Shown in pieces: positions 5,384 through 25,496 of a stretch of 25,496 nucleotides of DNA (positions within the stretch are counted from its first letter, which is position 1; every line of letters begins with the position of its first letter). Both the position numbers and the translations under genes were made by a program. The notes beneath the pieces were generated by a model. It worked only from the letters and a program-made list of their open reading frames with translations. It had not been told where the DNA came from and did not search any database. This stretch comes from a virus (taxonomy: Duplodnaviria > Heunggongvirae > Uroviricota > Caudoviricetes): positions 1 to 25,496 of the IMG/VR virus record IMGVR_UViG_2724679539_000001, one strand, 5' to 3'.

Positions 5384-5983
5384 ATGCGTAAATTATGTGC
5401 TGTTATTCTGTCCGCAGTAGTCTGGCTGGTTGCCGCTGGTACGCCAGCGAGCGCAGCAGAGCATCAGTCCACACTAAGCGCCGGGTATCTTCAGGCCCAT
5501 ACTGATATGCCAGGCAGTGATGACCTGAAGGGCATTAACGTGAAATACCGTTATGAATTTACGGACACGCTGGGGCTGGTGACGTCATTCAGTTATGCCA
5601 ATGCCAAAGATGAGCAAAAAACGCATTACAGCGATACCCGCTGGCATGAAGATTCCGTGCGTAACCGCTGGTTCAGCATGATGGCGGGGCCATCTGTACG
5701 CGTGAATGAATGGTTCAGTGCTTATGCGATGGCAGGTGTGGCTTACAGCCGTGTTTCGACGTTCTCCGGGGATTATCTCCGCGTAACTGACAACAAGGGG
5801 AAAACGCACGATGTGCTGACCGGAAGTGATGACGATCGCCACAGCAACACGTCTCTGGCGTGGGGAGCTGGCGTGCAGTTTAACCCGACCGAATCCGTGG
5901 CCATTGATATTGCTTATGAAGGCTCCGGCAGTGGCGACTGGCGCACTGACGGTTTCATCGTGGGTGTCGGTTATAAGTTCTGA
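5384..5983 (+). CDS. lom: Lom-like outer membrane protein (Ail/Lom/PagC beta-barrel family)
   Basis: 199-aa ORF with signal peptide MRKLCAVILSAVVWLVAAGTPASA and a C-terminal aromatic residue (…VGYKF) typical of OMP barrels. Closely resembles lambda Lom; sits directly after J as in lambda. Confidence 0.9.
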   Translation: MRKLCAVILSAVVWLVAAGTPASAAEHQSTLSAGYLQAHTDMPGSDDLKGINVKYRYEFTDTLGLVTSFSYANAKDEQKTHYSDTRWHEDSVRNRWFSMMAGPSVRVNEWFSAYAMAGVAYSRVSTFSGDYLRVTDNKGKTHDVLTGSDDDRHSNTSLAWGAGVQFNPTESVAIDIAYEGSGSGDWRTDGFIVGVGYKF

Positions 5984-6009
5984 TTAGCCAGGTAACACAG
6001 TGTTATGAC

Positions 6010-6036
6010 AGCCCGCCGGTTCAGGCGGGCTTTTTT
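6010..6036 (+). terminator. Rho-independent terminator downstream of lom
   Basis: AGCCCGCC-ggttca-GGCGGGCT followed by TTTTTT. Mirror copy at 19461-19487 on the minus strand. Confidence 0.7.
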
Positions 6037-6047
6037 GTGGAGTGGAT

Positions 6048-8429: not shown

Positions 8430-8707
8430 AAGATTTAACACTCAAATTTGCAGACAGGGCCGACTTTTCGGCCTTTATGGAGAGTGCTGGCTATTATGAT
8501 GACGAGTCGATGCAGGATGATATTCTTATTGACGTGATAGGTAACGTGTACAAAGAAACCGGAGAACTTACTGAAGATGGCGAGCCGGTATGTGTTAAGG
8601 AAGACGGATATTTTGTAAACGTGCGCATCATTAATGATGTGAAAACACCGTCAATATTCGATGAATACGTGGTTGCTGTTGAGCATCAACTTCGTGGCTG
8701 GATGTGA
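8426..8707 (+). CDS. Hypothetical protein (93 aa), acidic, translationally coupled to stf (ATGA overlap)
   Basis: ORF with ATG overlapping the stf stop; AT-rich codon usage like its neighbours; no recognisable motif. Confidence 0.55.
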   Translation: MKDLTLKFADRADFSAFMESAGYYDDESMQDDILIDVIGNVYKETGELTEDGEPVCVKEDGYFVNVRIINDVKTPSIFDEYVVAVEHQLRGWM

Positions 8708-8716
8708 GGAAGAATA

Positions 8717-9757
8717 ATGGCTACATCGACAGTAATTCCTGATGACATCAAAACGCTAAAATCCGATGTTAGCAAATTAAAAAACGATCAAGGAAGCTAC
8801 GTAACAAAATCATATGTAGACAGCAAAAATGAAACCGTTAATGACTGGTCTGCTGCATGGTATCAGCAGGTACTGCCAACTAGCGGAGCTATATTTGGGC
8901 GAAAACTTCGCTCAACTCACAGGACGGCAGGTGTTGAGGATGCGTATTGCGAACTATACCTTAAAAAATGGATAGACAGCCCAGGGAACGCAATGGCGCG
9001 CCTTAACCTGAACGATAACGGTGAAAATATTTGCTGGGATTTTACCAACCTTTACGGCGGAACAATGATCTTCCCTGGTACTTCAGGCTATCTGAAAATG
9101 GGGAACTGTCTCATGTCGTATAGTGTGCGGGGAAGTAACGCGCTTATTAAGTTTGATTACACCGACACATTACAGATCAAATATGCTAATCATGGGTCAA
9201 CCATGACATTAACCACACAGGGATCCGCTCACGCTGGCGTAACAACTAGACTATGGGGTAATTCTAGCCGTCCGGTTGTTTATGAAGTTGGCGTAGATGA
9301 GGCTCTGTATATGTTCTACGCACAGAAAACTACCAGCAATACCTACGAATTAACGGTTAACGGCGCGTGCAATGCAAGTGCATTTAATCAAGGCTCTGAC
9401 CGGGATCTGAAAGACAATATTCAGGTGATCGATAATGCAACCGACCGCATTCGTAAAATGAACGGCTATACATACACGCTTAAAGAAAACGGTATGCCTT
9501 ACGCTGGTGTTATTGCACAAGAAACCCTGGAAGCCATCCCCGAAGCCGTAGGGTCTATGATGAAATATCCAGACGGCGGGAGTGGATTAGATGGAGAAGA
9601 AGGTGAACGGTATTACACAGTAGATTATTCTGGTGTTACTGGCTTGCTTGTTCAGGTAGCCAGAGAGTCGGACGACAGAATAACAGCACTGGAAGAAGAA
9701 AACGCAGAATTAAGACAAAGATTATCTGCAATTGAGGCGGCGCTTGCGTCTAAATAA
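8717..9757 (+). CDS. Tail fibre/tailspike-like protein with C-terminal peptidase S74 intramolecular chaperone (autoproteolytic) domain
   Basis: 346-aa ORF with GAGGA RBS. C-terminal region SDRDLKDNIQVIDNATDRIRKMNGYTYTLKENG...AGVIAQE followed by a coiled-coil tail (ITALEEENAELRQRLSAIEAALASK) fits the S74 chaperone signature with a Ser-x4-Lys dyad. Confidence 0.7.
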   Translation: MATSTVIPDDIKTLKSDVSKLKNDQGSYVTKSYVDSKNETVNDWSAAWYQQVLPTSGAIFGRKLRSTHRTAGVEDAYCELYLKKWIDSPGNAMARLNLNDNGENICWDFTNLYGGTMIFPGTSGYLKMGNCLMSYSVRGSNALIKFDYTDTLQIKYANHGSTMTLTTQGSAHAGVTTRLWGNSSRPVVYEVGVDEALYMFYAQKTTSNTYELTVNGACNASAFNQGSDRDLKDNIQVIDNATDRIRKMNGYTYTLKENGMPYAGVIAQETLEAIPEAVGSMMKYPDGGSGLDGEEGERYYTVDYSGVTGLLVQVARESDDRITALEEENAELRQRLSAIEAALASK

Positions 9758-9763
9758 TATTAA

Positions 9764-9786
9764 GGGGCCGAGCGCCCCGTTTTATT
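9764..9786 (+). terminator. Candidate terminator hairpin downstream of the S74-domain gene
   Basis: GGGGC-cgagc-GCCCC followed by GTTTTATT. Mirror copy at 15711-15733 on the minus strand. Confidence 0.45.
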
Positions 9787-9793
9787 GGGTAGG

Positions 9794-10087
9794 ATGAAAA
9801 TGGATATAACACCTTTCCTTCATGCACTTTGTGCTGTGGCTGCGCAGCTACTGATTGGTCTTTTTACCGGGAACTGGGCTTACGGTGCGATAGCCGGTTG
9901 TACGTTCTTCATCGCTCGTGAACATACCCAGGCAGAATATCGCTGGATTGAAATGTTCGGGCATGGCAAGCGTATGAATATGCCGTGGTGGGGCGGTTTT
10001 GATCCTCGCGCGTGGGATGTAGCAAGCCTGATGGATTTTGCTGTGCCGGTGGTGGCGTGTTTACTTGTATTTATATTTTTTGAATAA
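9794..10087 (+). CDS. Hypothetical small membrane protein (two predicted transmembrane segments)
   Basis: The ORF track begins at TTG 9785; ATG at 9794 or 9800 (GGTAGGA 5 nt upstream of 9800) is more plausible. Hydrophobic segments FLHALCAVAAQLLIGLF and VPVVACLLVFIFF. Confidence 0.55.
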   Translation: MKMDITPFLHALCAVAAQLLIGLFTGNWAYGAIAGCTFFIAREHTQAEYRWIEMFGHGKRMNMPWWGGFDPRAWDVASLMDFAVPVVACLLVFIFFE

Positions 10088-10092
10088 AATTA

Positions 10093-10119
10093 AGACCCCA
10101 TCTATAACTGATGGGGTCT
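10093..10119. terminator. Bidirectional terminator-like hairpin between the convergent membrane-protein gene and sopB
   Basis: Perfect 10-bp inverted repeat AGACCCCATC-tataact-GATGGGGTCT with A/T-rich flanks on both sides. Mirror copy at 15378-15404. Confidence 0.5.
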
Positions 10120-10135
10120 ATTCTATTTTCTGCTA

Positions 10136-11125
10136 TTAGTTATTTTTTACATCGGAAGAATTTCCAAACGCCTCCTCAAGAATAGATTCAATTTTACTCA
10201 TTAGGTGCGATGGTATTTTTCTGTTATCTAATTTTAATGTTGTGAAATTTTTCCCATATTTCGCCACAACACCGTCTCCATATTTCTTTTCCCTTTTCTC
10301 TCCATGTGAATTGTTTTTCTCAACAATAATGAAATCATGAAGAGCCTGTATTATTCTTTGCGCATCTAAACTTTCACCTGATTTTTTCATCCTCAGCAAC
10401 TGAGATGCAGCATTTTTCATGGCTGCTTCCTGTCCCTGATATGCTTTAAAAAGAGCGTCTCCTGCTCTGGCTGATAACTCACCAGGATGGTTAAATATTG
10501 CCAATATATCTTTAGGTAAACCGGCTGTATTAATACATCGGCTGATAATATTTCTATCCACGCCTTCGGCTTCAGCTAAAGATTTTACGTTACCGTCAAA
10601 TTCATGGAGCCTTCGCAGGTATCTTTTCCCCCTTTCATAGGCGCTGATAGGTCTATAGTCGTTGCCTATCTGCGATAACCATTGCATTTGTTCATCATCT
10701 AAATCGCCAATAAGAACACGATAATCGCATCCAGTTATAATGGCTGCTTTACGTCTTCGAGAACCATCAGCTACTTCAACAATACCTGACACTTTTCTTG
10801 CGAAAGCCGGATTTTGTTGCCCAGAAGTTAGAAAAGATGGAATTAAATCAGCTAGAGAAGATTCATTTAATAAATCTTGATCACGCTCATTACCTAGCCA
10901 TACCATTGTTGCCATTTCTACTTTATCTGCGGGGATCGTCTCTAACTTAAAGTTAACATTACGTCCGCATACTGGCAAAGTTATGCTATTACCGGTTAAT
11001 GAACTCAGTTGACGTTTTAAATCACCAACCATAGGTGATACCGGCTGATGTTCAGGTGCATGATGATTATTACTCATAATGCGATTAATATCCGGAGCAT
11101 TTTTTAGAAGAGAGCGTTGTTTCAT
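10136..11125 (-). CDS. sopB: Partition protein SopB (ParB family, type Ia)
   Basis: 329-aa ORF. N-terminal two-thirds resemble F-plasmid SopB (ITLPVCGR, WxGNERDQ, GQQ.PAF, DGSRRRKAA, NDYRP.SAYERG, FSHPGELSA-like motifs); the C-terminus is divergent. ATG overlaps the sopA stop. Confidence 0.9.
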   Translation of the reverse strand: MKQRSLLKNAPDINRIMSNNHHAPEHQPVSPMVGDLKRQLSSLTGNSITLPVCGRNVNFKLETIPADKVEMATMVWLGNERDQDLLNESSLADLIPSFLTSGQQNPAFARKVSGIVEVADGSRRRKAAIITGCDYRVLIGDLDDEQMQWLSQIGNDYRPISAYERGKRYLRRLHEFDGNVKSLAEAEGVDRNIISRCINTAGLPKDILAIFNHPGELSARAGDALFKAYQGQEAAMKNAASQLLRMKKSGESLDAQRIIQALHDFIIVEKNNSHGEKREKKYGDGVVAKYGKNFTTLKLDNRKIPSHLMSKIESILEEAFGNSSDVKNN

Positions 11126-12291
11126 TCTTCGTTCTCCCAGCGAGGTTTTATTAGATCATCAAAAATTTCTCGACAAACAGGGTCCCATATAGAGACGGCA
11201 TTTCTCCATGCATTAAGTGTTGAACGCTGGTTTGCCGCTTGTTCAAATACTGTTCGCATTTTTATCTGACCTTTACCTACTTCATCGGTAACGCGTACAA
11301 CCTGACGTAATACCATTGATCCCCATGTATTTCTTATTTGCTCTTCCATCCATCGTGATTGATTTCCTGTAGTGAGACTATATTTAGTCAGAAGCAAGCG
11401 AACGGTCGGCTCAAATCCGCCTAGGTCAACGCTTTCTAGGAGATCGAGAAGCATTGTGAAAAACTGTAGAACAGAGGCGTAATCAAATAATTCTGCAGGG
11501 GTAGCAACAACGATAACGTCAGCTGCGCAAACAACGTTAATGGTTCCTGTACCGAGGTTTGGAGCACTATCTATAACGATAACATCGTAGTTATCCCAAA
11601 CTGATTCTATAGCTGCGCGTAGCATCAGGTGAGGAGGGTGAGGCAATTTACCCTGAGCATGATATTGCATGAGATCTGTTTCTATACGGTGTAAAGCTAG
11701 GCAGCTAGGAATAATGTCCAGTCCAGGCCAGCATGTTGGTTTTATAGCATATTCAGCGTTATCGCGTTCGCCCAAGTAAAATGGCAGTAAAGTATCCTCG
11801 GCATGTATATGTAAATCAGGTACATAACCGTGATACATGGAGGCTGTTCCCTGAGGATCGTTACCTTCAACTAAAAGAACACGATGACCTTGTAATGCTA
11901 GCCATTGTGCCTGATGTACTGCAGACGATGTTTTATAAACTCCGCCTTTGTGTGACATAACAGCAAGCACAACTGGGTTTTTATCTTGTGGCCGTTGGTT
12001 TGGGTTGCCAAAAACAGCTCGCATACTATTGATTTGATCTATGGTATAACCGGCACGACGTTCAACTCTTCCTCTCATTTCAAAGTCAGGTGCAGGTAAA
12101 CGCCCGTTCTTCTCAGCATCTCTTATTGCTTGAGGAGTTACACCAATTAAATCTGCTACTTCAGTTATCCCCCATCTACGCGTGATACGCCGAGCTTCAG
12201 GACTATCATCACCGAATTGAGCTATAGCAATTGCTTGGGTCATTTCTTGACCGCGCGTAACACAATCTTGTAATAACTTTTTCAAAGACAT
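11122..12291 (-). CDS. sopA: Partition ATPase SopA (ParA family, type Ia with N-terminal HTH extension)
   Basis: 389-aa ORF with deviant Walker A KGGVYKTS and a long N-terminal extension. High similarity to F/N15 SopA as recalled (LLVEGNDPQGTASMYHG, IDSAPNLG, KGQIRMRTVFEQA-like blocks). GGAG RBS. Confidence 0.95.
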   Translation of the reverse strand: MSLKKLLQDCVTRGQEMTQAIAIAQFGDDSPEARRITRRWGITEVADLIGVTPQAIRDAEKNGRLPAPDFEMRGRVERRAGYTIDQINSMRAVFGNPNQRPQDKNPVVLAVMSHKGGVYKTSSAVHQAQWLALQGHRVLLVEGNDPQGTASMYHGYVPDLHIHAEDTLLPFYLGERDNAEYAIKPTCWPGLDIIPSCLALHRIETDLMQYHAQGKLPHPPHLMLRAAIESVWDNYDVIVIDSAPNLGTGTINVVCAADVIVVATPAELFDYASVLQFFTMLLDLLESVDLGGFEPTVRLLLTKYSLTTGNQSRWMEEQIRNTWGSMVLRQVVRVTDEVGKGQIKMRTVFEQAANQRSTLNAWRNAVSIWDPVCREIFDDLIKPRWENEE

Positions 12292-12312
12292 ACTGTCATC
12301 TCCAGCTTATAA

Positions 12313-12390
12313 CTTTGCTTAATAATTATTGCTTTGCATATTTCTAGCAAATTGACATAGAAAAAGCAAAGTAAAACAAAAAAGGCAAAG
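12313..12390 (-). promoter_or_regulatory. Putative sopAB promoter/operator region with four CTTTGC/GCAAAG hexamers
   Basis: Hexamers at 12313-12318, 12332-12337, 12366-12371 and 12385-12390, immediately upstream of sopA. F SopA is known to autoregulate via CTTTGC repeats overlapping its promoter. Exact -35/-10 not resolved. Confidence 0.45.
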
Positions 12391-12570
12391 ACGAAGATTT
12401 GAACAAAATCATCTTTTGTTTTATCCCTTAAATGCAAAAAAAAACAACGGCAAGATCATAACAAATTGATAATAAAGGATTTTTTAAAAGAAAGGAAATC
12501 GTATAAAACTAGTGAAACATGATGAAAATCATCAATGAGATACGTTTCCTCTATTTATTCTCCTAATCCT

Positions 12571-12720
12571 CACCAACAAAAGAACACAATCAAAGATCGT
12601 AAAACAACAATAATAATTCACACAAAATAAAGAACACAAATACAGAAAACAACAACACAATAAAAACAAGAGAACACAAGCTATAAATATTACACCAATA
12701 GAGAACACTAATCAAGAACA
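12571..12720. repeat. Array of AGAACACA(A) direct repeats flanking the telomere palindrome (left arm)
   Basis: AGAACACAAT at 12581-12590, AGAACACAAA at 12631-12640, AACAACACAA at 12651-12660, AGAACACAAG at 12671-12680, GAGAACACTA at 12701-12710, and GAACA at 12716-12720 abutting the palindrome. Confidence 0.6.
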
Positions 12721-12776
12721 TATCAGCACATAATTTCCCATTATACGCGCGTATAATGGGAAATTATGTGCTGATA
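12721..12776. other. 56-bp perfect palindrome at the symmetry axis; putative protelomerase target / hairpin telomere (telRL/telO-like)
   Basis: Sequence TATCAGCACATAATTTCCCATTATACGCGCGTATAATGGGAAATTATGTGCTGATA. The central 22 bp match the N15 telO core as I recall it; the flanking arms differ from N15 at a few positions. Sits immediately beyond sopA, as telL does in N15. Confidence 0.75.
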
Positions 12777-12926
12777 TGTTCTTGATTAGTGTTCTCTATT
12801 GGTGTAATATTTATAGCTTGTGTTCTCTTGTTTTTATTGTGTTGTTGTTTTCTGTATTTGTGTTCTTTATTTTGTGTGAATTATTATTGTTGTTTTACGA
12901 TCTTTGATTGTGTTCTTTTGTTGGTG
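12777..12926. repeat. Mirror copy of the AGAACACA repeat array (right arm, opposite orientation)
   Basis: Reverse complement of 12571-12720 (TGTGTTCT motifs). Confidence 0.6.
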
Positions 12927-13106
12927 AGGATTAGGAGAATAAATAGAGGAAACGTATCTCATTGATGATTTTCATCATGTTTCACTAGTTTTATACGATT
13001 TCCTTTCTTTTAAAAAATCCTTTATTATCAATTTGTTATGATCTTGCCGTTGTTTTTTTTTGCATTTAAGGGATAAAACAAAAGATGATTTTGTTCAAAT
13101 CTTCGT

Positions 13107-13184
13107 CTTTGCCTTTTTTGTTTTACTTTGCTTTTTCTATGTCAATTTGCTAGAAATATGCAAAGCAATAATTATTAAGCAAAG
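13107..13184 (+). promoter_or_regulatory. Putative sopAB promoter/operator region (mirror copy)
   Basis: Mirror of 12313-12390; CTTTGC/GCAAAG hexamers upstream of the second sopA copy. Confidence 0.45.
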
Positions 13185-13205
13185 TTATAAGCTGGAGATG
13201 ACAGT

Positions 13206-14375
13206 ATGTCTTTGAAAAAGTTATTACAAGATTGTGTTACGCGCGGTCAAGAAATGACCCAAGCAATTGCTATAGCTCAATTCGGTGATGATAGTCCTGA
13301 AGCTCGGCGTATCACGCGTAGATGGGGGATAACTGAAGTAGCAGATTTAATTGGTGTAACTCCTCAAGCAATAAGAGATGCTGAGAAGAACGGGCGTTTA
13401 CCTGCACCTGACTTTGAAATGAGAGGAAGAGTTGAACGTCGTGCCGGTTATACCATAGATCAAATCAATAGTATGCGAGCTGTTTTTGGCAACCCAAACC
13501 AACGGCCACAAGATAAAAACCCAGTTGTGCTTGCTGTTATGTCACACAAAGGCGGAGTTTATAAAACATCGTCTGCAGTACATCAGGCACAATGGCTAGC
13601 ATTACAAGGTCATCGTGTTCTTTTAGTTGAAGGTAACGATCCTCAGGGAACAGCCTCCATGTATCACGGTTATGTACCTGATTTACATATACATGCCGAG
13701 GATACTTTACTGCCATTTTACTTGGGCGAACGCGATAACGCTGAATATGCTATAAAACCAACATGCTGGCCTGGACTGGACATTATTCCTAGCTGCCTAG
13801 CTTTACACCGTATAGAAACAGATCTCATGCAATATCATGCTCAGGGTAAATTGCCTCACCCTCCTCACCTGATGCTACGCGCAGCTATAGAATCAGTTTG
13901 GGATAACTACGATGTTATCGTTATAGATAGTGCTCCAAACCTCGGTACAGGAACCATTAACGTTGTTTGCGCAGCTGACGTTATCGTTGTTGCTACCCCT
14001 GCAGAATTATTTGATTACGCCTCTGTTCTACAGTTTTTCACAATGCTTCTCGATCTCCTAGAAAGCGTTGACCTAGGCGGATTTGAGCCGACCGTTCGCT
14101 TGCTTCTGACTAAATATAGTCTCACTACAGGAAATCAATCACGATGGATGGAAGAGCAAATAAGAAATACATGGGGATCAATGGTATTACGTCAGGTTGT
14201 ACGCGTTACCGATGAAGTAGGTAAAGGTCAGATAAAAATGCGAACAGTATTTGAACAAGCGGCAAACCAGCGTTCAACACTTAATGCATGGAGAAATGCC
14301 GTCTCTATATGGGACCCTGTTTGTCGAGAAATTTTTGATGATCTAATAAAACCTCGCTGGGAGAACGAAGAATGA
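13206..14375 (+). CDS. sopA: Partition ATPase SopA (mirror copy)
   Basis: Protein identical to the 11122-12291 ORF. Confidence 0.95.
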   Translation: MSLKKLLQDCVTRGQEMTQAIAIAQFGDDSPEARRITRRWGITEVADLIGVTPQAIRDAEKNGRLPAPDFEMRGRVERRAGYTIDQINSMRAVFGNPNQRPQDKNPVVLAVMSHKGGVYKTSSAVHQAQWLALQGHRVLLVEGNDPQGTASMYHGYVPDLHIHAEDTLLPFYLGERDNAEYAIKPTCWPGLDIIPSCLALHRIETDLMQYHAQGKLPHPPHLMLRAAIESVWDNYDVIVIDSAPNLGTGTINVVCAADVIVVATPAELFDYASVLQFFTMLLDLLESVDLGGFEPTVRLLLTKYSLTTGNQSRWMEEQIRNTWGSMVLRQVVRVTDEVGKGQIKMRTVFEQAANQRSTLNAWRNAVSIWDPVCREIFDDLIKPRWENEE

Positions 14376-15361
14376 AACAACGCTCTCTTCTAAAAAATGC
14401 TCCGGATATTAATCGCATTATGAGTAATAATCATCATGCACCTGAACATCAGCCGGTATCACCTATGGTTGGTGATTTAAAACGTCAACTGAGTTCATTA
14501 ACCGGTAATAGCATAACTTTGCCAGTATGCGGACGTAATGTTAACTTTAAGTTAGAGACGATCCCCGCAGATAAAGTAGAAATGGCAACAATGGTATGGC
14601 TAGGTAATGAGCGTGATCAAGATTTATTAAATGAATCTTCTCTAGCTGATTTAATTCCATCTTTTCTAACTTCTGGGCAACAAAATCCGGCTTTCGCAAG
14701 AAAAGTGTCAGGTATTGTTGAAGTAGCTGATGGTTCTCGAAGACGTAAAGCAGCCATTATAACTGGATGCGATTATCGTGTTCTTATTGGCGATTTAGAT
14801 GATGAACAAATGCAATGGTTATCGCAGATAGGCAACGACTATAGACCTATCAGCGCCTATGAAAGGGGGAAAAGATACCTGCGAAGGCTCCATGAATTTG
14901 ACGGTAACGTAAAATCTTTAGCTGAAGCCGAAGGCGTGGATAGAAATATTATCAGCCGATGTATTAATACAGCCGGTTTACCTAAAGATATATTGGCAAT
15001 ATTTAACCATCCTGGTGAGTTATCAGCCAGAGCAGGAGACGCTCTTTTTAAAGCATATCAGGGACAGGAAGCAGCCATGAAAAATGCTGCATCTCAGTTG
15101 CTGAGGATGAAAAAATCAGGTGAAAGTTTAGATGCGCAAAGAATAATACAGGCTCTTCATGATTTCATTATTGTTGAGAAAAACAATTCACATGGAGAGA
15201 AAAGGGAAAAGAAATATGGAGACGGTGTTGTGGCGAAATATGGGAAAAATTTCACAACATTAAAATTAGATAACAGAAAAATACCATCGCACCTAATGAG
15301 TAAAATTGAATCTATTCTTGAGGAGGCGTTTGGAAATTCTTCCGATGTAAAAAATAACTAA
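14372..15361 (+). CDS. sopB: Partition protein SopB (mirror copy)
   Basis: Protein identical to the 10136-11125 ORF. Confidence 0.9.
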   Translation: MKQRSLLKNAPDINRIMSNNHHAPEHQPVSPMVGDLKRQLSSLTGNSITLPVCGRNVNFKLETIPADKVEMATMVWLGNERDQDLLNESSLADLIPSFLTSGQQNPAFARKVSGIVEVADGSRRRKAAIITGCDYRVLIGDLDDEQMQWLSQIGNDYRPISAYERGKRYLRRLHEFDGNVKSLAEAEGVDRNIISRCINTAGLPKDILAIFNHPGELSARAGDALFKAYQGQEAAMKNAASQLLRMKKSGESLDAQRIIQALHDFIIVEKNNSHGEKREKKYGDGVVAKYGKNFTTLKLDNRKIPSHLMSKIESILEEAFGNSSDVKNN

Positions 15362-15409
15362 TAGCAGAAAATAGAATAGACCCCATCAGTTATAGATGGG
15401 GTCTTAATT

Positions 15410-15703
15410 TTATTCAAAAAATATAAATACAAGTAAACACGCCACCACCGGCACAGCAAAATCCATCAGGCTTGCTACATCCCACGCGCGAGGATCAAAA
15501 CCGCCCCACCACGGCATATTCATACGCTTGCCATGCCCGAACATTTCAATCCAGCGATATTCTGCCTGGGTATGTTCACGAGCGATGAAGAACGTACAAC
15601 CGGCTATCGCACCGTAAGCCCAGTTCCCGGTAAAAAGACCAATCAGTAGCTGCGCAGCCACAGCACAAAGTGCATGAAGGAAAGGTGTTATATCCATTTT
15701 CAT
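15410..15703 (-). CDS. Hypothetical small membrane protein (mirror copy)
   Basis: Mirror of 9794-10087. Confidence 0.55.
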   Translation of the reverse strand: MKMDITPFLHALCAVAAQLLIGLFTGNWAYGAIAGCTFFIAREHTQAEYRWIEMFGHGKRMNMPWWGGFDPRAWDVASLMDFAVPVVACLLVFIFFE

Positions 15704-15739
15704 CCTACCCAATAAAACGGGGCGCTCGGCCCCTTAATA

Positions 15740-16780
15740 TTATTTAGACGCAAGCGCCGCCTCAATTGCAGATAATCTTTGTCTTAATTCTGCGTTTTCT
15801 TCTTCCAGTGCTGTTATTCTGTCGTCCGACTCTCTGGCTACCTGAACAAGCAAGCCAGTAACACCAGAATAATCTACTGTGTAATACCGTTCACCTTCTT
15901 CTCCATCTAATCCACTCCCGCCGTCTGGATATTTCATCATAGACCCTACGGCTTCGGGGATGGCTTCCAGGGTTTCTTGTGCAATAACACCAGCGTAAGG
16001 CATACCGTTTTCTTTAAGCGTGTATGTATAGCCGTTCATTTTACGAATGCGGTCGGTTGCATTATCGATCACCTGAATATTGTCTTTCAGATCCCGGTCA
16101 GAGCCTTGATTAAATGCACTTGCATTGCACGCGCCGTTAACCGTTAATTCGTAGGTATTGCTGGTAGTTTTCTGTGCGTAGAACATATACAGAGCCTCAT
16201 CTACGCCAACTTCATAAACAACCGGACGGCTAGAATTACCCCATAGTCTAGTTGTTACGCCAGCGTGAGCGGATCCCTGTGTGGTTAATGTCATGGTTGA
16301 CCCATGATTAGCATATTTGATCTGTAATGTGTCGGTGTAATCAAACTTAATAAGCGCGTTACTTCCCCGCACACTATACGACATGAGACAGTTCCCCATT
16401 TTCAGATAGCCTGAAGTACCAGGGAAGATCATTGTTCCGCCGTAAAGGTTGGTAAAATCCCAGCAAATATTTTCACCGTTATCGTTCAGGTTAAGGCGCG
16501 CCATTGCGTTCCCTGGGCTGTCTATCCATTTTTTAAGGTATAGTTCGCAATACGCATCCTCAACACCTGCCGTCCTGTGAGTTGAGCGAAGTTTTCGCCC
16601 AAATATAGCTCCGCTAGTTGGCAGTACCTGCTGATACCATGCAGCAGACCAGTCATTAACGGTTTCATTTTTGCTGTCTACATATGATTTTGTTACGTAG
16701 CTTCCTTGATCGTTTTTTAATTTGCTAACATCGGATTTTAGCGTTTTGATGTCATCAGGAATTACTGTCGATGTAGCCAT
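15740..16780 (-). CDS. Tail fibre-like protein with S74 intramolecular chaperone domain (mirror copy)
   Basis: Protein identical to the 8717-9757 ORF. Confidence 0.7.
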   Translation of the reverse strand: MATSTVIPDDIKTLKSDVSKLKNDQGSYVTKSYVDSKNETVNDWSAAWYQQVLPTSGAIFGRKLRSTHRTAGVEDAYCELYLKKWIDSPGNAMARLNLNDNGENICWDFTNLYGGTMIFPGTSGYLKMGNCLMSYSVRGSNALIKFDYTDTLQIKYANHGSTMTLTTQGSAHAGVTTRLWGNSSRPVVYEVGVDEALYMFYAQKTTSNTYELTVNGACNASAFNQGSDRDLKDNIQVIDNATDRIRKMNGYTYTLKENGMPYAGVIAQETLEAIPEAVGSMMKYPDGGSGLDGEEGERYYTVDYSGVTGLLVQVARESDDRITALEEENAELRQRLSAIEAALASK

Positions 16781-16789
16781 TATTCTTCC

Positions 16790-17071
16790 TCACATCCAGC
16801 CACGAAGTTGATGCTCAACAGCAACCACGTATTCATCGAATATTGACGGTGTTTTCACATCATTAATGATGCGCACGTTTACAAAATATCCGTCTTCCTT
16901 AACACATACCGGCTCGCCATCTTCAGTAAGTTCTCCGGTTTCTTTGTACACGTTACCTATCACGTCAATAAGAATATCATCCTGCATCGACTCGTCATCA
17001 TAATAGCCAGCACTCTCCATAAAGGCCGAAAAGTCGGCCCTGTCTGCAAATTTGAGTGTTAAATCTTTCAT
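16790..17071 (-). CDS. Hypothetical protein, 93 aa (mirror copy)
   Basis: Protein identical to the 8426-8707 ORF. Confidence 0.55.
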   Translation of the reverse strand: MKDLTLKFADRADFSAFMESAGYYDDESMQDDILIDVIGNVYKETGELTEDGEPVCVKEDGYFVNVRIINDVKTPSIFDEYVVAVEHQLRGWM

Positions 17072-19449
17072 TTAATACTCTCCCCCATTTGCGCATCAGT
17101 TAATTCTTTATGCCATATTCTGAAATTCCTGATGTGTCCAAACAAATGACGTAACCCGGCTGTAGTCTGGCCTCCAATACGGATAATTGCGGTGTTCTGA
17201 ATATAAGACCATGTGGTTTTTGTTTCGCTGGATATACGCCCGTTACTTACTGAGCACGTAGACTGATCTGACTTTACACGCATCCCCATAACCATTTTTT
17301 CAAGCGATGCGTTTTCGTTTACCCGTCTGTTAGCCAAACCTATATCACAATAAGGAAATCCGTCGTAATCTGTTGAACGACCGAAGCCAAGAATAATAGC
17401 CGCTCCGGTTTGATGACCGCCGGTATCAAAAACACGCGGTGCTGCATTTGGCGTTTTATACCAGTTCTTATGTACCTCACAAAGAACCGTAAAAGGAAGA
17501 TTATAAAGGTTATTCTTGATTGGGACTGTCACCATATCGCTTGCGCGAGTGCTTGCAGTTATATCAGTTACAATAAATGACGAAGCACTTGATCCACCTT
17601 CCACTTGTGGAGTTGCGATATCCAGATAGTCTCCAGATGCTGTGCCTGAACCTTTTACTGGAGCATATTGAACCATCGCACCAATCATGCTCTCTGTATC
17701 TAGTGCATTAATTGTAGCCTGATAGAAAATCCAACCAGTAGCCTCATCTTTTACAGCTTTTGCAATAATACGATTTGCTGCACCACCAGTCTTATCAATT
17801 ACAAGTGTTGATAAATTGAGGTAAGCATCTCCCAAAAAAGTGTAAGTAGAACCATCATGATGTTCAAATCTTAAACGACACCTTATATTTTCAACATCAC
17901 TTCTGACACGGCATGAAATGGTCACATATTTTTCATCACCTGTGACATCAAATCCTTTACTGCCAGAAACCGTTGCGATATTAATCGCACTTGTCTGATC
18001 AATAAGAGTATCTTTTACAGTAAATCTCCCATAAGTAAAATTAAATGAATCCGTGGATATTTCTGTGAGTTCCAGATTGCCTGACTTATTCCATTTAGAT
18101 GGATTTGTTGAATTAAGCAGAAGATTAGTTCTTTGCCCCTCAATAAGCAGGCCATCACGTTCAAACCGTGGCTCGTCAATGGCAGCCTCTGTCAGCACAC
18201 CAGATTTATTAATGTAAGTTGCTTTTGATGCGCGTTTAAACTTTACAACCTTATCGCCAGGCATCGTTATTTCATCATCACCAATAACAATCTTTTTATA
18301 TGACGGCGAAAAGCCCGTAATCATATCCAGCGAATCGTTAAATGGTATCCACACATCGGGAAGCGGCTGCAAAACTTGTTTATACGGCTCCGCAGCCTGG
18401 CTTGCATACTCTCTGGCTGCGTCTTCACTTGCTTTTGCAGCCGTCTGGCTTGCTGCGGATGCTTTCGCCGAGTTAGCCGCCGCAGTCTCGCTCGCCTTTG
18501 CATTGGTTTCACTGGTTTTTGCTGCTTTTTGACTGTTGGCTGATGCAGTGGCAGAAGCAGCCGCCGCGCTTGCAGAACTGGCTGCGGCACTCTCGCTTTG
18601 AGCCGCTGCATCCTGACTGCTTTTCGCCGCAGTTTCACTGGCTTTGGCATTCGTTTCGCTGGTCTTCGCTGCCGTCTGGCTGGACTTTGCGTTAGTTTCA
18701 CTCGTCTTCGCAGCTTTCTGGCTGTTAGCCGTAGCAGTTGCTGATCCAGCTGCTGAAGTCGCAGAACCGGCTGCCGCGCTCTCGCTTTGGGCTGCTGCAA
18801 CCTGGCTGTTTTTTGCCGCAGTTTCACTGGCTTTGGCATTCGTTTCGCTGGTCTTCGCTGCCGTCTGGCTGGACTTTGCGTTGGTTTCGCTCGTCTTTGC
18901 GGCTGTCTCGCTATTTTTCGCGTTGGTTTCTGATTTTTTAGCTGCTGTTGCGGAGTTTGCCGATGCAGTCTGCGAGGCCGCTGCCGCCTGTGCGCTGTTA
19001 GCTGCATTCGTTTCTGAGGTTTTCGCCGCGTTCTTCGATGATGCCGCTGCAGTTTCGGATTTCTTTGCCGCCGCTGCGCTCTGAGAGGCGGCTTCAGCGT
19101 TGCGTGCCGCTTCTTCCACCATTTCCTCAAAACGACGCAATGCCTCCGGCATGACATCATCTTCCGTCATGGCACCGAGAAAATCATTCAGCGTACCTGG
19201 TCTGGAACCTTCATAGACGGTAATGGTCCCGGCATGTGAAGGCGGAAAACCTTCAACCAGCAGGGTGACGCTGTACTGACCATACTCAACATCCATGCTG
19301 TAACGCCCGGCTTCATCCGGATTTTCAGAGGCCACCGTGTTCACCAGTACCGTGGTGCTGTTACGCTTTGCCTTCAGTTGAATAGTGCAGTTCTGTATTG
19401 GTTTTCCCGCACCATCTTTCAGCACACCTGAGATTTTTACTGCTGCCAT
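17068..19449 (-). CDS. stf: Stf-like side tail fibre protein (mirror copy)
   Basis: Protein identical to the 6048-8429 ORF. Confidence 0.85.
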   Translation of the reverse strand: MAAVKISGVLKDGAGKPIQNCTIQLKAKRNSTTVLVNTVASENPDEAGRYSMDVEYGQYSVTLLVEGFPPSHAGTITVYEGSRPGTLNDFLGAMTEDDVMPEALRRFEEMVEEAARNAEAASQSAAAAKKSETAAASSKNAAKTSETNAANSAQAAAASQTASANSATAAKKSETNAKNSETAAKTSETNAKSSQTAAKTSETNAKASETAAKNSQVAAAQSESAAAGSATSAAGSATATANSQKAAKTSETNAKSSQTAAKTSETNAKASETAAKSSQDAAAQSESAAASSASAAAASATASANSQKAAKTSETNAKASETAAANSAKASAASQTAAKASEDAAREYASQAAEPYKQVLQPLPDVWIPFNDSLDMITGFSPSYKKIVIGDDEITMPGDKVVKFKRASKATYINKSGVLTEAAIDEPRFERDGLLIEGQRTNLLLNSTNPSKWNKSGNLELTEISTDSFNFTYGRFTVKDTLIDQTSAINIATVSGSKGFDVTGDEKYVTISCRVRSDVENIRCRLRFEHHDGSTYTFLGDAYLNLSTLVIDKTGGAANRIIAKAVKDEATGWIFYQATINALDTESMIGAMVQYAPVKGSGTASGDYLDIATPQVEGGSSASSFIVTDITASTRASDMVTVPIKNNLYNLPFTVLCEVHKNWYKTPNAAPRVFDTGGHQTGAAIILGFGRSTDYDGFPYCDIGLANRRVNENASLEKMVMGMRVKSDQSTCSVSNGRISSETKTTWSYIQNTAIIRIGGQTTAGLRHLFGHIRNFRIWHKELTDAQMGESIK
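18568..18901 (-). repeat. Internal 189-bp tandem repeat inside stf (mirror copy)
   Basis: Mirror of 6596-6929. Confidence 0.85.
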
Positions 19450-19513
19450 ATCCACTCCACAAAAAAGCCCGCCTGAACCGGCGGGCTGTCATAACACTGT
19501 GTTACCTGGCTAA

Positions 19514-20113
19514 TCAGAACTTATAACCGACACCCACGATGAAACCGTCAGTGCGCCAGTCGCCACTGCCGGAGCCTTCATAAGCAATATCAATGGCCAC
19601 GGATTCGGTCGGGTTAAACTGCACGCCAGCTCCCCACGCCAGAGACGTGTTGCTGTGGCGATCGTCATCACTTCCGGTCAGCACATCGTGCGTTTTCCCC
19701 TTGTTGTCAGTTACGCGGAGATAATCCCCGGAGAACGTCGAAACACGGCTGTAAGCCACACCTGCCATCGCATAAGCACTGAACCATTCATTCACGCGTA
19801 CAGATGGCCCCGCCATCATGCTGAACCAGCGGTTACGCACGGAATCTTCATGCCAGCGGGTATCGCTGTAATGCGTTTTTTGCTCATCTTTGGCATTGGC
19901 ATAACTGAATGACGTCACCAGCCCCAGCGTGTCCGTAAATTCATAACGGTATTTCACGTTAATGCCCTTCAGGTCATCACTGCCTGGCATATCAGTATGG
20001 GCCTGAAGATACCCGGCGCTTAGTGTGGACTGATGCTCTGCTGCGCTCGCTGGCGTACCAGCGGCAACCAGCCAGACTACTGCGGACAGAATAACAGCAC
20101 ATAATTTACGCAT
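19514..20113 (-). CDS. lom: Lom-like outer membrane protein (mirror copy)
   Basis: Protein identical to the 5384-5983 ORF. Confidence 0.9.
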   Translation of the reverse strand: MRKLCAVILSAVVWLVAAGTPASAAEHQSTLSAGYLQAHTDMPGSDDLKGINVKYRYEFTDTLGLVTSFSYANAKDEQKTHYSDTRWHEDSVRNRWFSMMAGPSVRVNEWFSAYAMAGVAYSRVSTFSGDYLRVTDNKGKTHDVLTGSDDDRHSNTSLAWGAGVQFNPTESVAIDIAYEGSGSGDWRTDGFIVGVGYKF

Positions 20114-20180
20114 AATTACCTCTCGCTTTTCTGCAATAAAAAAGGCGTCATTTCTGACGCCCGTATTGGGGTTATAAAAT

Positions 20181-23100
20181 TCAGCTGATACTGATGCCTG
20201 CGGTGGCTTTCTTCATCACCACAACCAGCAAATCGCTGATACTTGCTGTGGGATACCAGCCATTTACCCACCATGCTGATACCGAAAACTCCAGTGTCAT
20301 TACGCCACTGCCTGCAGGCATATCAATAACACCCGTGTAAATCAGAGTATTATCCAGAGCCGTTCGGTTATAAATTTCAGCCCCGTTTTTCTTCACTATC
20401 AGGCGGCATGACGAATAAGTATCGCTATTCTCCCGTTCATGTCTGGCACCGCTGAAAGCCACCGCTGGAATAACAATCTGCCGGTCAAACGGCTGATCGT
20501 CATAAACCCTGACGGTAATGGTCCCTGATGGCCACCGTTCCGGTGCACGGGAGTCACGGGGGAAAGCTTTGCCCACTGTTTTAACGAGATCGCCTTCAAT
20601 CTGGTTCGCGGACAGTTTTCCCAGAACCCGGCAGTTCTCGTTAATCGTGACGTTGTTGAGCGTCCCGGAGTTCGCATTCACGTTACCGCTGATATCGGCA
20701 TTTTTTGCCGTCAGCCGCCCGTCCGGTGTCAGGGAAAATGCCGGAGGATTACCGCCGCTGGTAATGGTGGGAGCCGTCAGATATTTCAGGAACACTTCAT
20801 TCATAAATATCTGATCGCCCTGACCAACAAACATCGGCTTTGTGTTGCCATTCGCAGGATTAATCATCGCAATCCTGTCCGCCGCCAGCAGCACCTGACT
20901 CTGCATACCGTCAGGGGTATTCTCAATACCGGCACCAATACCCGCGATATAAAGGCGTCCGTCCTGCATCTGCTGCAGCTTCACAGCCCACATGCTGTTC
21001 AGGTTATTATTTGTATCAACCTGAACCTTCTGTATCTGCTGAATTGCCGCACTCTGGTCTTCCAGTTTCTTATTGACGGTCTGCGTGATTTCATTGCTGA
21101 CATCCGTAATGGACGTCCTGATTTCAGCCAGGTCAGGCGCAAGCTGACCGTTATCAATCTGCGTCCACAGCTCCTGAGCCAGATGGCTTTTCCCTATCTC
21201 TCCTTTGAAAAAATCCAGATAGCCGGATGCATCATCACTCGGCTGGCCAACAGCCTCCACAAATGCCGATTTGCCAACGGTGTTCACACTGCGGATGTAA
21301 AAATAATAATCATGGCCCGGTTTGATATTGATACTGGCGGCTATCCAGTACAGCGCCGTGCCAAGATAGCGGGCTGTGGTTTCAACCTGCCTGATATCGG
21401 TAATCCGCTTTTCCGAGAACCAGAACTCAAACTGTACCGTCGGGTCATAAATGGCAAGATGCGGCGTGGCGGTTATCTGAAAATAGCCCGGCGTCAGCTC
21501 AATCCTCGACGGTGCTGCCGGTGCGGCAATCCGGAACGATACCGACGCCGCATCGCCCTGCTGCCCCCACGCATTTACCGCCCGGACTGTCAGCCTGTAG
21601 TTCCCCAGCGCCAGTTGCGTGAAGCGGTATGTGGTTTCCGTCGTCCGGGCCGTGCTGACCAGCCGCTCACTGCCGTCGTCCGCTGTTACGGTCAGACGGA
21701 GCAGGAAGCTCACGCCCTTCACCACCTTCGGTGTGTCCCATCGCGCCAGCACCTGATATTCCCCGCTGTCTGCAGTGACTTCTGCGGTCAGGTGCTGCAC
21801 CGCTGGCGGCGTGACACCATTCACCGTGCCACTCTGTTCGCCGTCAAAGTGCGCCCCGTTATCCACGATGGCCTCTTTTTCCGGCACATGCTGCACGGCG
21901 GTGATGGCATACGTGCCGTCGTCGTTCTCACGGATACTCACGCAGCGGAACAGGCGCTGGCGCAGCGTCGGCAGCTTCAGCCCCCATACGCTGTATTCAG
22001 CAACACCCTCAGGAACACGGCTCACTTTTACCTTCACGCCGTCGTTGACGGACTGAACCTCCACGCTGACCGGATTGCCACTTCCGTCAACCAGGCTTAT
22101 CAGCGTGGTACCGGAGGATGGCAGCGTGATTTCACGGTCGAGCGTCAGCGTCCGGGTCTGGCTGTTCACCGCCAGCACACGACCACCGGTGCTGATACCG
22201 GCATAGTCATCATCGCAGATTTCAATAACATCGCCCGGTACATGGCGAAGCCCTTCTGCGCCGACGCTGAAATCCACGGTCTGCGTCTCCAGCAGCTCCG
22301 TTTTAATCAGCCACAGCCCGGCGCGGTGTGCCTGCCCCCGGCTGGTACAGCCAAAGGCATCCATCTTCGTAACATTACGACCGTAACGGGCAATGGCCTG
22401 CGTATCTTCAACAAGCTCTGTCGCCGTCTCCCAGCCGTTGTTCGGGTCAATCCAGTTCACCTCAACGGCATTATGGCGGTCTTTCAGGGCGCTGAAGCTG
22501 TAGCGGAACGGCGCGCCATCATCCGGCATCACCACATTACTGCGGTTATAGGTCCACGCCTTATCCGACGGTCGGTCCTGCACGAACGTCAGCGTCTGCC
22601 CGTTCCATACCGGCATACAGCGCATCGCCGAGCAGAAATCACTGAGAACGTCCCACGCCTTGCGCTGTGTGGTCAGGTACGCATTACAGGTGATGCGCGG
22701 CTCCGTGCCGCCAAAGCCGTCCGGCACTGACTGGTCGCAGTACTGGCCGATGACATACAGCGCCCATTTGTCCACATCCGCCGCACCAAGACGTTTCCCC
22801 ATGCCGTAGCGCGGATGGGTCAGCATATCCCACAGACACCAGGCCATGTTGTTGCTGTATGCTGGCTTAAACGTTCCGTCCCAGATACCGCTGTATTGCC
22901 GCGTCTGCGGGTTATAATTCGACGGCACCTGCAGAATGCGCCCGCGAAGATGATAATTACGGCTCACCTGCTGGCTGCCGAACTGCTCCGAATCCACCTG
23001 CACGCCGACCAGTGCCGTGTTCGGGTAGCACTGTTTCACATCGATGATTTCGGTGTATGACGACCAGAGCGTTTTGTTCTGCAGCTGGTCTGTGGTGCTG

Positions 23101-23660
23101 TCCGGCGTCATTCTGCGCATCCGGATATTAAACGGGCGCGGCGGCAGGTTATCCACCACCACCGAGGCCAGATACTGCGAGGTGGTTTTGCCCTTAATGG
23201 TGATATCTTTTTCCGTCACCCAGCCACCATTACGCTGTATCTGAACCAGCAGGCGAACTTCCGACGGATTCCGGTCCCCCTTTGAGGTGGTTTCCACCAG
23301 TGCCTGCACACCGAAGGTAAAGCGCAGTCGGTCGATGTTTGCCGACGTGATGGCGCGGGTGATCGGCGTGTCGTATTTCACTTCCGTACCCAACACCGTC
23401 TCGGAGCCGGAGGATTCAAACCCCTCCGGCGGTGTCTGCTCCTGCTCACCGGCACGGAACACCACCGTGACACCGGAGATGTTGGTATTCCCCTCAGTGT
23501 CCAGCACCGGCGTACTGTTCAGCAGCACGCTTTTTAATCCATCCACCGGACCTTCAACCGGCCCTTCGCTGATGGCATCGATCACACTCAGCAACTGCGT
23601 GGACTTCAGGTTGTCCTTCGCTTCGCGCGGGGTATGCCCCTTACTGCTTCCTTTACTCAT
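20181..23660 (-). CDS. J: Host specificity protein J (mirror copy)
   Basis: Protein identical to the 1837-5316 ORF. Confidence 0.95.
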
Positions 23661-23720
23661 TCCTCACGCTCCATAAATGACAAAACCGCCCGCAGGCGGT
23701 TTCACATAAAACATTTTGCA

Positions 23721-24392
23721 TCAGCGACCAATCACCACAACCTGACCACCGTCCCCTTCGTCTGCCGTGCTGATCTCCTGAGAAACCACGCGTGACCCCA
23801 CGCGCATTTCCCCGTACAGAACAGGCAGAACATTGCCCTGGGCAACCATGTTATCCAGTGAGGAGAAATAGGTGTTCTGCTTACCGTTATCCGTTGTCTG
23901 TGTACGGGGAGTTCTGGCTTTCGGTGCCAGCATCTGCGCCACACCACCGAGGACCATACTGGCACCGAGAGAAAACAGGATGCCGGTCATACCACCGGCC
24001 CCAATGGCTGCCCCCCATGCTGCAAGGGTGGCTCCGGCGGTAAAGAATGATCCGGCAATGGCGGCAGCCCCCAGGACAATCTGGAATACGCCACCTGACT
24101 TGGCCCCGGCGACTCTGGGAACAATATGAATCACAGCGCCATCAGGCAGAGTCTCATGTAACTGCGCCGTTAACCCGGACGTGCTGACGTCCCGCCCGGC
24201 AATCCGTACCTGATACCAGCCGTCGCTCAGTTTCTGACGAAACGCCGGGAGCTGTGTGGCCAGTGCCCGGATGGCTTCAGCCCCCGTTTTCACACGAAGG
24301 TCGATGCGGCGACCAAATCGTTGTAAATCCCCGTAAAGGCAGATGCGCGCCATGCCCGGTGACGCCAGAGGGAGTGTGTGCGTCGCTGCCAT
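23721..24392 (-). CDS. I: Tail tip assembly protein I (mirror copy)
   Basis: Protein identical to the 1105-1776 ORF. Confidence 0.88.
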   Translation of the reverse strand: MAATHTLPLASPGMARICLYGDLQRFGRRIDLRVKTGAEAIRALATQLPAFRQKLSDGWYQVRIAGRDVSTSGLTAQLHETLPDGAVIHIVPRVAGAKSGGVFQIVLGAAAIAGSFFTAGATLAAWGAAIGAGGMTGILFSLGASMVLGGVAQMLAPKARTPRTQTTDNGKQNTYFSSLDNMVAQGNVLPVLYGEMRVGSRVVSQEISTADEGDGGQVVVIGR

Positions 24393-25033
24393 TTGTCGGT
24401 GTACCTCTCTCGTTTGCTCAGTTGTTCAGGAATATGGTGCAGCAGCTCACCGTCACCACAGTAAATGGCGGCATGATTCGGCACCGATGAACCAAAACAG
24501 CACAGCAGCACATCGCCCGGCTGCGCCGCTGACAACGGCACCTGATACAGCCCTGTGGCCTCCAGATTATCCAGATAGAGATTCTGACCGTGACGCCACC
24601 AGTCATCCCCGCGATGAAAATCCGGCATCTCAATCCCCGCCAGATGATAAGCATCCCGGAACAGCGTGTAACAGTCCGTCACCCCGTGCTCAAAGCGCCG
24701 CCCGGTGAGATGCGGCACACAGCGGAACTTATGAATCGCCCCCCGGCAGACCAGCCACCACGGCAAATCACTCTGCACCTGCAGCCGCCGGTCAGCCTCA
24801 CTCTGCCAGGGCAGACCACCGGGGTGGCTGTGGACCAGCGCCACAATCTCACCCTGCATTTCTGCCTGCAGCCAGTCCTCCGGAGCCATCCGGAAATAAT
24901 CCTCCGGCTCACCGGAAATATTCACGCCGGGAAAATATCTTTCCCCCTCCGGCGTGCTTACCACGAAGCCGCACGACTCCGCTGGCGCACATCGCCGGGC
25001 GTGCGCCAGAATCGCTGATTCTGTCTGTGTCAT
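24290..25033 (-). CDS. K: Tail tip assembly protein K (mirror copy)
   Basis: Protein identical to the 464-1207 ORF. Confidence 0.88.
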   Translation of the reverse strand: MTQTESAILAHARRCAPAESCGFVVSTPEGERYFPGVNISGEPEDYFRMAPEDWLQAEMQGEIVALVHSHPGGLPWQSEADRRLQVQSDLPWWLVCRGAIHKFRCVPHLTGRRFEHGVTDCYTLFRDAYHLAGIEMPDFHRGDDWWRHGQNLYLDNLEATGLYQVPLSAAQPGDVLLCCFGSSVPNHAAIYCGDGELLHHIPEQLSKRERYTDKWQRRTHSLWRHRAWRASAFTGIYNDLVAASTFV

Positions 25034-25038
25034 GGGAT

Positions 25039-25496
25039 TTACTGCGAAAGTTTGTTAATGGAAAGGAAGCCGCCAAAGTTGCCGACGTTATTGCGGAACT
25101 TACAACCGCTCAGGCATTTGCTGCATTTATCCTTCGTGATATCGGACGTTGGCTGGTCATATTCATCCGCGACTGCCGGACCGTGATAACCGCACTCATC
25201 ACCGCGATAGGTCCAGGTGCAGGTGTTGGCCAGCATGATACGTCCCGGAAAAACAGCACCGTCCGTTTCCGTCGGCGTGGACAGTACAAAAGAGGCACTC
25301 ACCGCGCTCAGTTCGCTGCACTGCTCAATGCGCCAGCGGCTGATCACCTCCTGCTCCGGATCGGCGCCACTGTTTCCGTTGACGAAGTTCACCGCATCCA
25401 GAAAACGGGCGTAAACCTTACGCCGGACCACCGTTCCACCGACCAGACTCTGCAGATCTTCCGCCATCCCGGTGACCATAATGTATAAGTGTGTAA
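25039..25496 (-). CDS. L: Tail tip protein L, 5'-truncated by the window edge (mirror copy); the last 17 nt diverge from the left-end copy
   Basis: 25039-25479 encodes a protein identical to 18-458. The codons in 25480-25494 would read THLYI instead of the lambda-like SNLYG. Confidence 0.8.
   Translation of the reverse strand, partial: THLYIMVTGMAEDLQSLVGGTVVRRKVYARFLDAVNFVNGNSGADPEQEVISRWRIEQCSELSAVSASFVLSTPTETDGAVFPGRIMLANTCTWTYRGDECGYHGPAVADEYDQPTSDITKDKCSKCLSGCKFRNNVGNFGGFLSINKLSQ

Follow-up and report, generated by a model that had tools for sequence, protein, structure and literature searches.

We sought to determine why a 25,496-nt stretch of DNA (the window, i.e. the whole stretch analysed), which over nearly its entire length reads as its own reverse complement, loses this symmetry in the outermost 17 nt, and whether the break reflects a real feature of the element or an error in its record. 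The window is the entire contig JZWQ02000009.1 (25,496 bp) from assembly GCA_000968905.2 of Escherichia fergusonii GTA-EF02, so that positions 1 and 25496 are true contig ends; the sequence-only reading of this DNA had proposed to extend both ends, for which no flanking sequence exists. GTA-EF02 was isolated from beef trim, and version 1 of its assembly was obtained from a Nextera XT library sequenced on a MiSeq instrument in the 2x300 format, with Quake correction and SPAdes 3.5 assembly (PMC4832150). The window belongs to assembly version 2, and the published method covers version 1 only.

Symmetry of the contig and sequence of its tips

Exhaustive base-by-base comparison of the window with its own reverse complement yielded 14 mismatching positions forming 7 pairs, located at 3, 5, 6, 9, 11, 15 and 16 and at their mirror partners within 25481-25494, all of them confined to the terminal 17 nt. 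From 17 to 25480 the mirroring is perfect, with zero mismatches, around a centre lying between 12748 and 12749. At the tips, positions 1-17 (TTTCTAACCTGTACGGT) and the reverse complement of 25480-25496 (TTACACACTTATACATT) agree at 10/17 positions, and their translations begin with SNLYGMVTG and THLYIMVTG, respectively. The exact mirror inside the tips, their 10/17 agreement and the contrast of SNLYG with THLYI, all of which were described in the sequence-only reading, are thus reproduced.

The right tip differs from the left one by 7 substitutions and no indels, which amounts to a substitution rate of 41% across the 17 nt; in one codon, CTG is replaced by TTA, two changes that retain leucine. 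Manual inspection of the 7 substitutions revealed no clear signature of phasing or channel cross-talk. The in-register agreement exceeds chance (binomial p=0.003, or p=0.004 when the boundary position is discounted), and empirically is attained by only 0.3% of the 17-mers in the window. Because the agreement is above chance and the differences are substitutions only, the right end appears to be a degraded copy of the authentic left sequence rather than unrelated DNA, and the same in-register similarity to gene L makes foreign, unrelated DNA an unlikely source.

A telomere-like site at the mirror centre

The features of the window are listed in Table 1. Pfam searches on the source contig yielded CbiA/ParA, SopB_HTH, Phage_tail_L, NLPC_P60, Lambda_tail_I and GpJ domains, and sopAB-type partition genes adjacent to telL are accompanied by a lambda-like tail module, as is typical of N15-like telomere phages.

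Table 1. Features of the window, with coordinates, strand and basis of assignment
Feature	Position	Strand	Basis or remarks
Left contig tip	1..17	+	Authentic gene L sequence, codons ..S N L Y G
Right contig tip	25480..25496	-	Aberrant 17 nt, reverse complement TTACACACTTATACATT, THLYI; judged to be a contig-end artefact
Putative telL arm of N15-like linear plasmid-prophage	17..12748	+	Gene calls, Pfam, collinearity with relatives
L, partial	3-458	+	Phage_tail_L; C-terminal two-thirds of tail protein L
K	464-1207	+	Gene calls/Pfam of source contig
I	1204-1776	+	Gene calls/Pfam of source contig
J	1837-5316	+	Gene calls/Pfam of source contig; 1,159 aa, intact
Lom	5384-5983	+	Gene calls/Pfam of source contig
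Tail-fibre genes	6048-8429, 8426-8707, 8717-9757, 9800-10087	+	Gene calls/Pfam
sopB	10136-11125	-	Gene calls/Pfam of source contig
sopA	11122-12291	-	Gene calls/Pfam of source contig; 389 aa
A+T-rich non-coding stretch between sopA and telomere	12292..12720	+	About 450 nt from sopA to centre
telO-like 56-bp palindrome	12721..12776		Apex between 12748 and 12749; perfect hairpin on folding
Second half	12749..25480	-	Exact reverse complement of 17-12748; interpreted as complementary strand, not second copy

The central 56 nt of the window are identical to the annotated N15 telRL repeat at 50/56 positions, the left half at 26/28, and the telO core TATACGCGCGTATA is the same in both. The N15 annotation describes an inverted repeat containing the cut site for prophage formation, with the "cut at 24802/3", and the apex of the window falls at the same position. 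Beyond approximately 30 nt from the apex, the non-coding flank shows only about 50% ungapped identity to N15. In the E. albertii element pEA8_3, the sequence continues from this core into another arm (telR) and a protelomerase gene; the gene lies just beyond the core both in pEA8_3 and in N15.

The last 1.2 kb before the centre match E. coli "plasmids" of about 46 kb, and in two of them the match reaches the record end. The whole arm is collinear with the 46-kb pEC21Z151-46K at 97.1% identity, that record halting 47 nt before the centre, and is 99.95% identical to a 45-kb phage-plasmid contig (L004) ending 313 nt before the centre; overall, records of the 46-kb relatives stop 23-313 nt before the apex is reached. 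Retrieval by the core motif gave relatives in three states: unresolved telRL sites, palindromic for only 12-29 nt per side; contigs ending 18-99 nt past the apex; and long fold-backs, perfect for kilobases. The ten longest contigs with an identical SopA all display the sopA-to-sopA fold-back, and among these ten are a SPAdes-named 90,054-nt contig and a 94,358-nt scaffold, with the apex at the exact midpoint in each.

Since the centre coincides with the N15 cut site, the relatives end near the apex, and the fold-back recurs independently, the window is best interpreted as a single telL arm of an N15-like linear plasmid-prophage whose two strands were read in succession through the hairpin. Apart from its tips, the contig shows both marks of an assembly fold-back, reading identically on either strand and inverting at a known telomere, and a kilobase-scale perfect fold-back centred on the cut site would be the sequence signature of a covalently closed hairpin. 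The mirror "duplication" would then correspond to both strands of one hairpin-capped arm and not to a repeat. A hairpin was not recognised in the sequence-only reading, whose idea of a duplicated stretch, possibly carrying two versions of L, is left unsupported.

Comparison with known systems

The biology of N15-type elements, including the telomere phage itself, telRL, hairpin telL and sopAB next to the telomere, is already known, and the element described here is a common member of this family. As in N15 (Ravinvirus N15), it has a telO-like palindrome (50/56) with the apex at the cut site, sopA/sopB just inside telL, lambda-like tail genes, and relatives of about 46 kb with a protelomerase gene just past the site. 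It differs from N15 in the tail fibre/host-range region, in the non-coding flank of the telomere and in its host, E. fergusonii; furthermore, in contrast to full N15, the window comprises the telL arm only, and protelomerase, repA and telR would lie outside it.

Fold-back contigs are already known to arise during assembly. At the hairpin telomeres of Borrelia, wrapping around by the assembler was termed "telomeric inverse duplication", and ligation-based Illumina libraries were reported to give no coverage at the hairpin turn-around (bioRxiv 10.1101/2025.07.18.665644). Tagmentation libraries may nevertheless give templates that span the hairpin. Both in Borrelia and in our case the reverse complement is appended past the closed hairpin and the inversion point marks the telomere; the Borrelia case, however, is based on long reads (bioRxiv 10.1101/2025.07.18.665644), while the present one is from Nextera/MiSeq/SPAdes, at least in version 1, and the whole contig is an inverted duplicate. 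Whole-contig palindromes were also documented as SPAdes (+Pilon) assembly errors (PMC9455707); there, too, the two strands of the entire contig read alike and each gene appears in the annotation once per orientation, but those palindromes come from M. bovis, which has no hairpin telomere, and are pure artefacts, whereas the fold-back in the window would rest on the telL hairpin.

The left tip is shared with relatives and the right tip is unique

Over bases 1-600, the window matches many E. coli chromosomes at 100% identity, and the left end is identical in more than 50 E. coli genomes. In 14 of the loci retrieved, ATGGTCACC follows this same left 17-mer; among these are two near-identical phage-plasmid contigs, L003 and L004, in both of which gene L continues upstream of position 1. 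The left tip, encoding SNLYG, thus represents the true gene L sequence.

The best matches to the right tip align from base 17 onward only. With a 50-nt blastn query over this tip, none of the 13,170 gene L places in 5,426 complete E. coli genomes was covered at 80% or more (0/13,170), and no match was obtained in PLSDB plasmids. Exact 24/26-mers spanning the tip and gene L (for the 26-mer, TTACACACTTATACATTATGGTCACC, with TTTCTAACCTGTACGGTATGGTCACC as its authentic counterpart) were not found in IMG/VR, in 185,579 GTDB species genomes or in JGI metagenomes, and a degenerate pattern for THLYIMVTGMA had no match either. The searched databases hold few E. fergusonii genomes, and a variant private to GTA-EF02 could escape them. 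Within the window, the aberrant 17-mer matches only itself at up to 3 mismatches; searched alone in IMG/VR, it yielded 11 matches in unrelated contexts, approximately at the chance rate, with three contexts recurring on two or three contigs. The 17-mer was accordingly not recognisable as the end of a mobile element, these matches being unrelated and close to chance.

At the protein level, each of the two partial L products of the contig is on record on one contig only, the THLYI protein as KWW02965.1 / WP_061115614.1. None of the 119 L homologues compared (cluster representatives with 67-99% identity to the query) departs from S, N or G of SNLYG (119/119 each), Y being variable, and THLYI alters exactly these three invariant residues. 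As a version of the lambda-family minor tail protein L (PF05100), the right-tip product therefore neither occurs elsewhere, with no match in any collection searched, nor retains the invariant residues, and a natural L allele was rejected on these grounds. The lack of a counterpart of the right tip in the collections searched, together with the invariance of these residues, makes a real coding allele very unlikely.

Gene L as a recurrent break point

The 90%-identity cluster of the partial L product comprises 4,064 members, mostly labelled "partial", which start within a few codons of this spot; authentic N-termini were present in all inspected members but the THLYI product (P0122). Gene L occupies a median of 2 places per Escherichia genome, and up to 13, and base 17, in the wobble position of the invariant Gly codon, varies naturally between T and C (GGT/GGC). 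In another sample, a Logan contig starts precisely at position 18, and in the terminal part of the E. coli IH5 record a piece with genes L and K, corresponding to window 17-758, begins at position 17, so that truncated L abuts a truncated IS3-family transposase between bases 16 and 17. Because of the partial-L cluster, the multiple copies of L, the wobble base at 17 and the start points of the Logan contig and the IH5 piece, we conclude that the outer limit of the symmetric block is a recurrent assembly-graph branch point and not a biological boundary.

The sequence-only reading had offered two options for the break, namely the boundary of a duplicated segment, e.g. a recombination or assembly junction inside gene L, or error-prone contig ends. 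The latter option is upheld by a right-end version that is found nowhere else and has lost three invariant residues, and the former is not supported; an assembly junction in gene L survives in the sense of a recurrent contig break point, while a recombination junction does not.

In the IH5 "complete chromosome" (L075; NZ_CP168269.1 4856500-4863500), the last ~13 kb are a patchwork of truncated fragments of VgrG, Tn3, IS1, tail genes L/K, IS3 and RHS, together with an intact IS26 transposase, which gives the impression of repeat contigs that could not be placed and were strung together. The IS3 junction was rejected as an insertion shared with GTA-EF02, since its flank resembles the aberrant tip at only 6/17 positions (manual count) and the region is a patchwork. 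The IH5 junction would rather support a recurrent contig or graph boundary.

Origin of the 17-nt asymmetry

The explanation that we prefer, with a probability of about 0.78, is that the 17 nt at the right tip are an assembly error on a hairpin fold-back contig of an N15-like phage-plasmid and are absent from the DNA, and the symmetry break is most likely not a real biological feature. Templates spanning the telL hairpin would follow one strand to the tip and return along its complement, from which a graph assembler would produce a self-reverse-complementary contig centred on the hairpin tip; its two arms would halt at one and the same point of tail gene L, which other lambdoid prophages also carry. 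Because a self-conjugate graph edge would by construction be symmetric to the last base, the outermost 16-17 nt would have to come from a later step. Two alternative tips, one derived from good read starts and the other from error-rich tails or low coverage, might have been attached to opposite ends; or else "correction" or polishing based on read mapping might have altered one end, the two halves being indistinguishable to the mapper. A pipeline step of this kind would be behind the errors, and the error itself is deduced from the contig sequence.

Other fully palindromic contigs (L002, described below, and L030) and seven asymmetric fold-backs have no terminal mismatches, so that the defect is peculiar to JZWQ02000009.1. 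In particular, pEC21Z151-14K (NZ_CP101203.1) from a strain which also has a 46-kb phage-plasmid is, like the window, a palindrome with an identical centre and a sopA-to-sopA pair, perfect over 14,498 bp; unlike those of the window, its ends, located in lom, are fully symmetric and show no terminal mismatches, and the 17-nt defect is therefore not general to fold-back contigs. Against an artefact speak the high figure of 41% substitutions and the need to assume an extra assembly step. The CTG to TTA replacement with leucine kept also hints, if faintly, at a real coding allele.

Alternatively, the right 17 nt could be real DNA. The L region would then occur a second time in the isolate, either in another lambdoid prophage or as a truncated L joined between bases 16 and 17 to foreign or mobile sequence, in which case the assembler would have put the phage-plasmid context on one end and the other context on the opposite end. 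We consider this unlikely. It would agree with the presence of several copies of gene L in most Escherichia genomes, with the junction of truncated L and the IS3-family transposase at the same base in IH5, with the contig from another sample that begins at position 18, and with survival of the Leu codon after a double change, but the sequence is found nowhere else, be it as nucleotides or as a peptide. As an L allele, it would have changed three invariant residues; as foreign sequence, it would not be expected to match gene L in register at 10/17 positions (p~0.003), and the 17-mer alone finds unrelated contexts at about the chance rate. Moreover, a true branch would normally extend past the same 17 nt on both sides. 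The more specific version, in which GTA-EF02 carries a second, rearranged or heavily mutated L region joined between bases 16 and 17, as in IH5, strikes us as highly improbable; if true, it would mark lambdoid gene L as a hot spot at which breakage or recombination recurs, beyond a graph branch caused by the wobble base.

There is even less reason to believe that the palindrome arose without a hairpin telomere, as a physical molecule or a library chimera, e.g. a head-to-head dimer replication intermediate or a fold-back chimera from library preparation, with the tips forming a real outer junction. N15-type replication passes through head-to-head dimer junctions, which would share their sequence with a hairpin that has been read round; having the same central sequence, however, such a junction is uninformative with respect to the tips. 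Palindromic SPAdes contigs have been reported in genomes without hairpins (PMC9455707), but a random chimera would not be expected to have its apex at the protelomerase cut site to the base, nor to recur in many independent assemblies. The outer ends of the window lie inside gene L, which continues normally in relatives, and the joined tips are not authentic in either orientation and thus provide no snap-back loop from genomic sequence. A snap-back loop at the outer end, i.e. a dumbbell molecule, was rejected for the reason that the right tip is authentic in neither orientation.

The least credible source of the 17 nt is an untrimmed library adapter or a remnant of the transposase mosaic end. 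The right tip has the 8-mer TGTATAAG in common with the Nextera mosaic end. Although a Nextera library was indeed used (PMC4832150), the orientation of TGTATAAG is wrong for read-through, the best ungapped match to Nextera, TruSeq, SMRTbell and ONT adapters amounts to 8-10/17, which is reached by 17-80% of shuffled 17-mers and about equally by the authentic 17-mer, and the in-register similarity to gene L would be left unexplained; adapter or vector contamination was rejected, as the matches are no better than those of shuffled sequence.

Fold-back records in public data

The deposited GTA-EF02 contig, taken as a single folded-back arm, has each of its 11 genes annotated twice, and KWW02965.1 / WP_061115614.1, which starts with THLYI, contains residues that are probably not real. 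Public databases commonly hold such fold-back records, which inflate gene and plasmid counts; at the same time, the inversion point would allow the telL hairpin of this phage-plasmid family to be read exactly from short-read data. The biological weight of these findings is small, and their main use is as a curation flag for the contig, the THLYI record and similar palindromic "plasmid" records.

The RefSeq "complete circular plasmid" pEC21Z151-14K (L002; NZ_CP101203.1 1-14498), the centre of which is identical to window 12704-12793, represents the folded-back telL arm of pEC21Z151-46K, an element of the same strain, with each gene annotated twice. The record of pEC21Z151-46K is itself labelled circular, though it ends 47 nt before the hairpin tip. 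Numerous public "plasmid" records of 61-91 kb hold 2-4 copies of the arm, e.g. CP088430.1 (91,525 bp), NZ_CP019258.1 (75,007), CP088810.1 (81,175), CP088738.1 (77,165), NZ_CP126957.1 (68,426) and NZ_LT906558.1 (61,544), and the inverted sopA-to-sopA pair is also found inside multi-megabase records, in the CP025707.1 chromosome (L025, 6767-27936) and in the 2.7-Mb draft contig CASDMQ010000024.1 (L020). Both the multi-copy-arm records and the megabase ones are probably fold-back or mis-joined linear phage-plasmids of ~46 kb.

The exact 389-aa SopA is present in 2,565 blocks of a public contig collection, mostly in contigs of 2-5 kb, indicating that the N15-like phage-plasmid lineage is very widespread. 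The telL-proximal region usually assembles as a short separate contig.

Other features of the arm

Between sopA and the telomere, the motif (A/G)AGAACACAA occurs in about four spaced copies, at 12579-12589, 12629-12639, 12669-12679 and 12699-12710, and AAGAACATATCAGCAC adjoins the telO core, the repeat-bearing stretch occupying 12564-12730 (mirror 12767-12933). The (A/G)AGAACACAA repeats and AAGAACATATCAGCAC could be putative protelomerase-flanking (tos-type) or partition-site repeats. In the tail-fibre gene at 6048-8429, two overlapping direct repeats of ~249 nt, 6582-6830 and 6771-7019, are ~83% identical and 189 nt apart, and would indicate a repetitive domain in the side tail fibre at 6582-7019; this region is skewed towards A over T, with an AT skew of 0.355 for 6001-7000. 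Downstream of ~7.4 kb, identity of the arm to L003 falls from 99.8% to 97.9%, which would be indicative of mosaic exchange in the tail-fibre region. Finally, gene J is intact in the window, yet in pEC21Z151-46K, the closest complete relative, it is annotated as frameshifted (NZ_CP101200.1 gpJ, L001 4288-7765).
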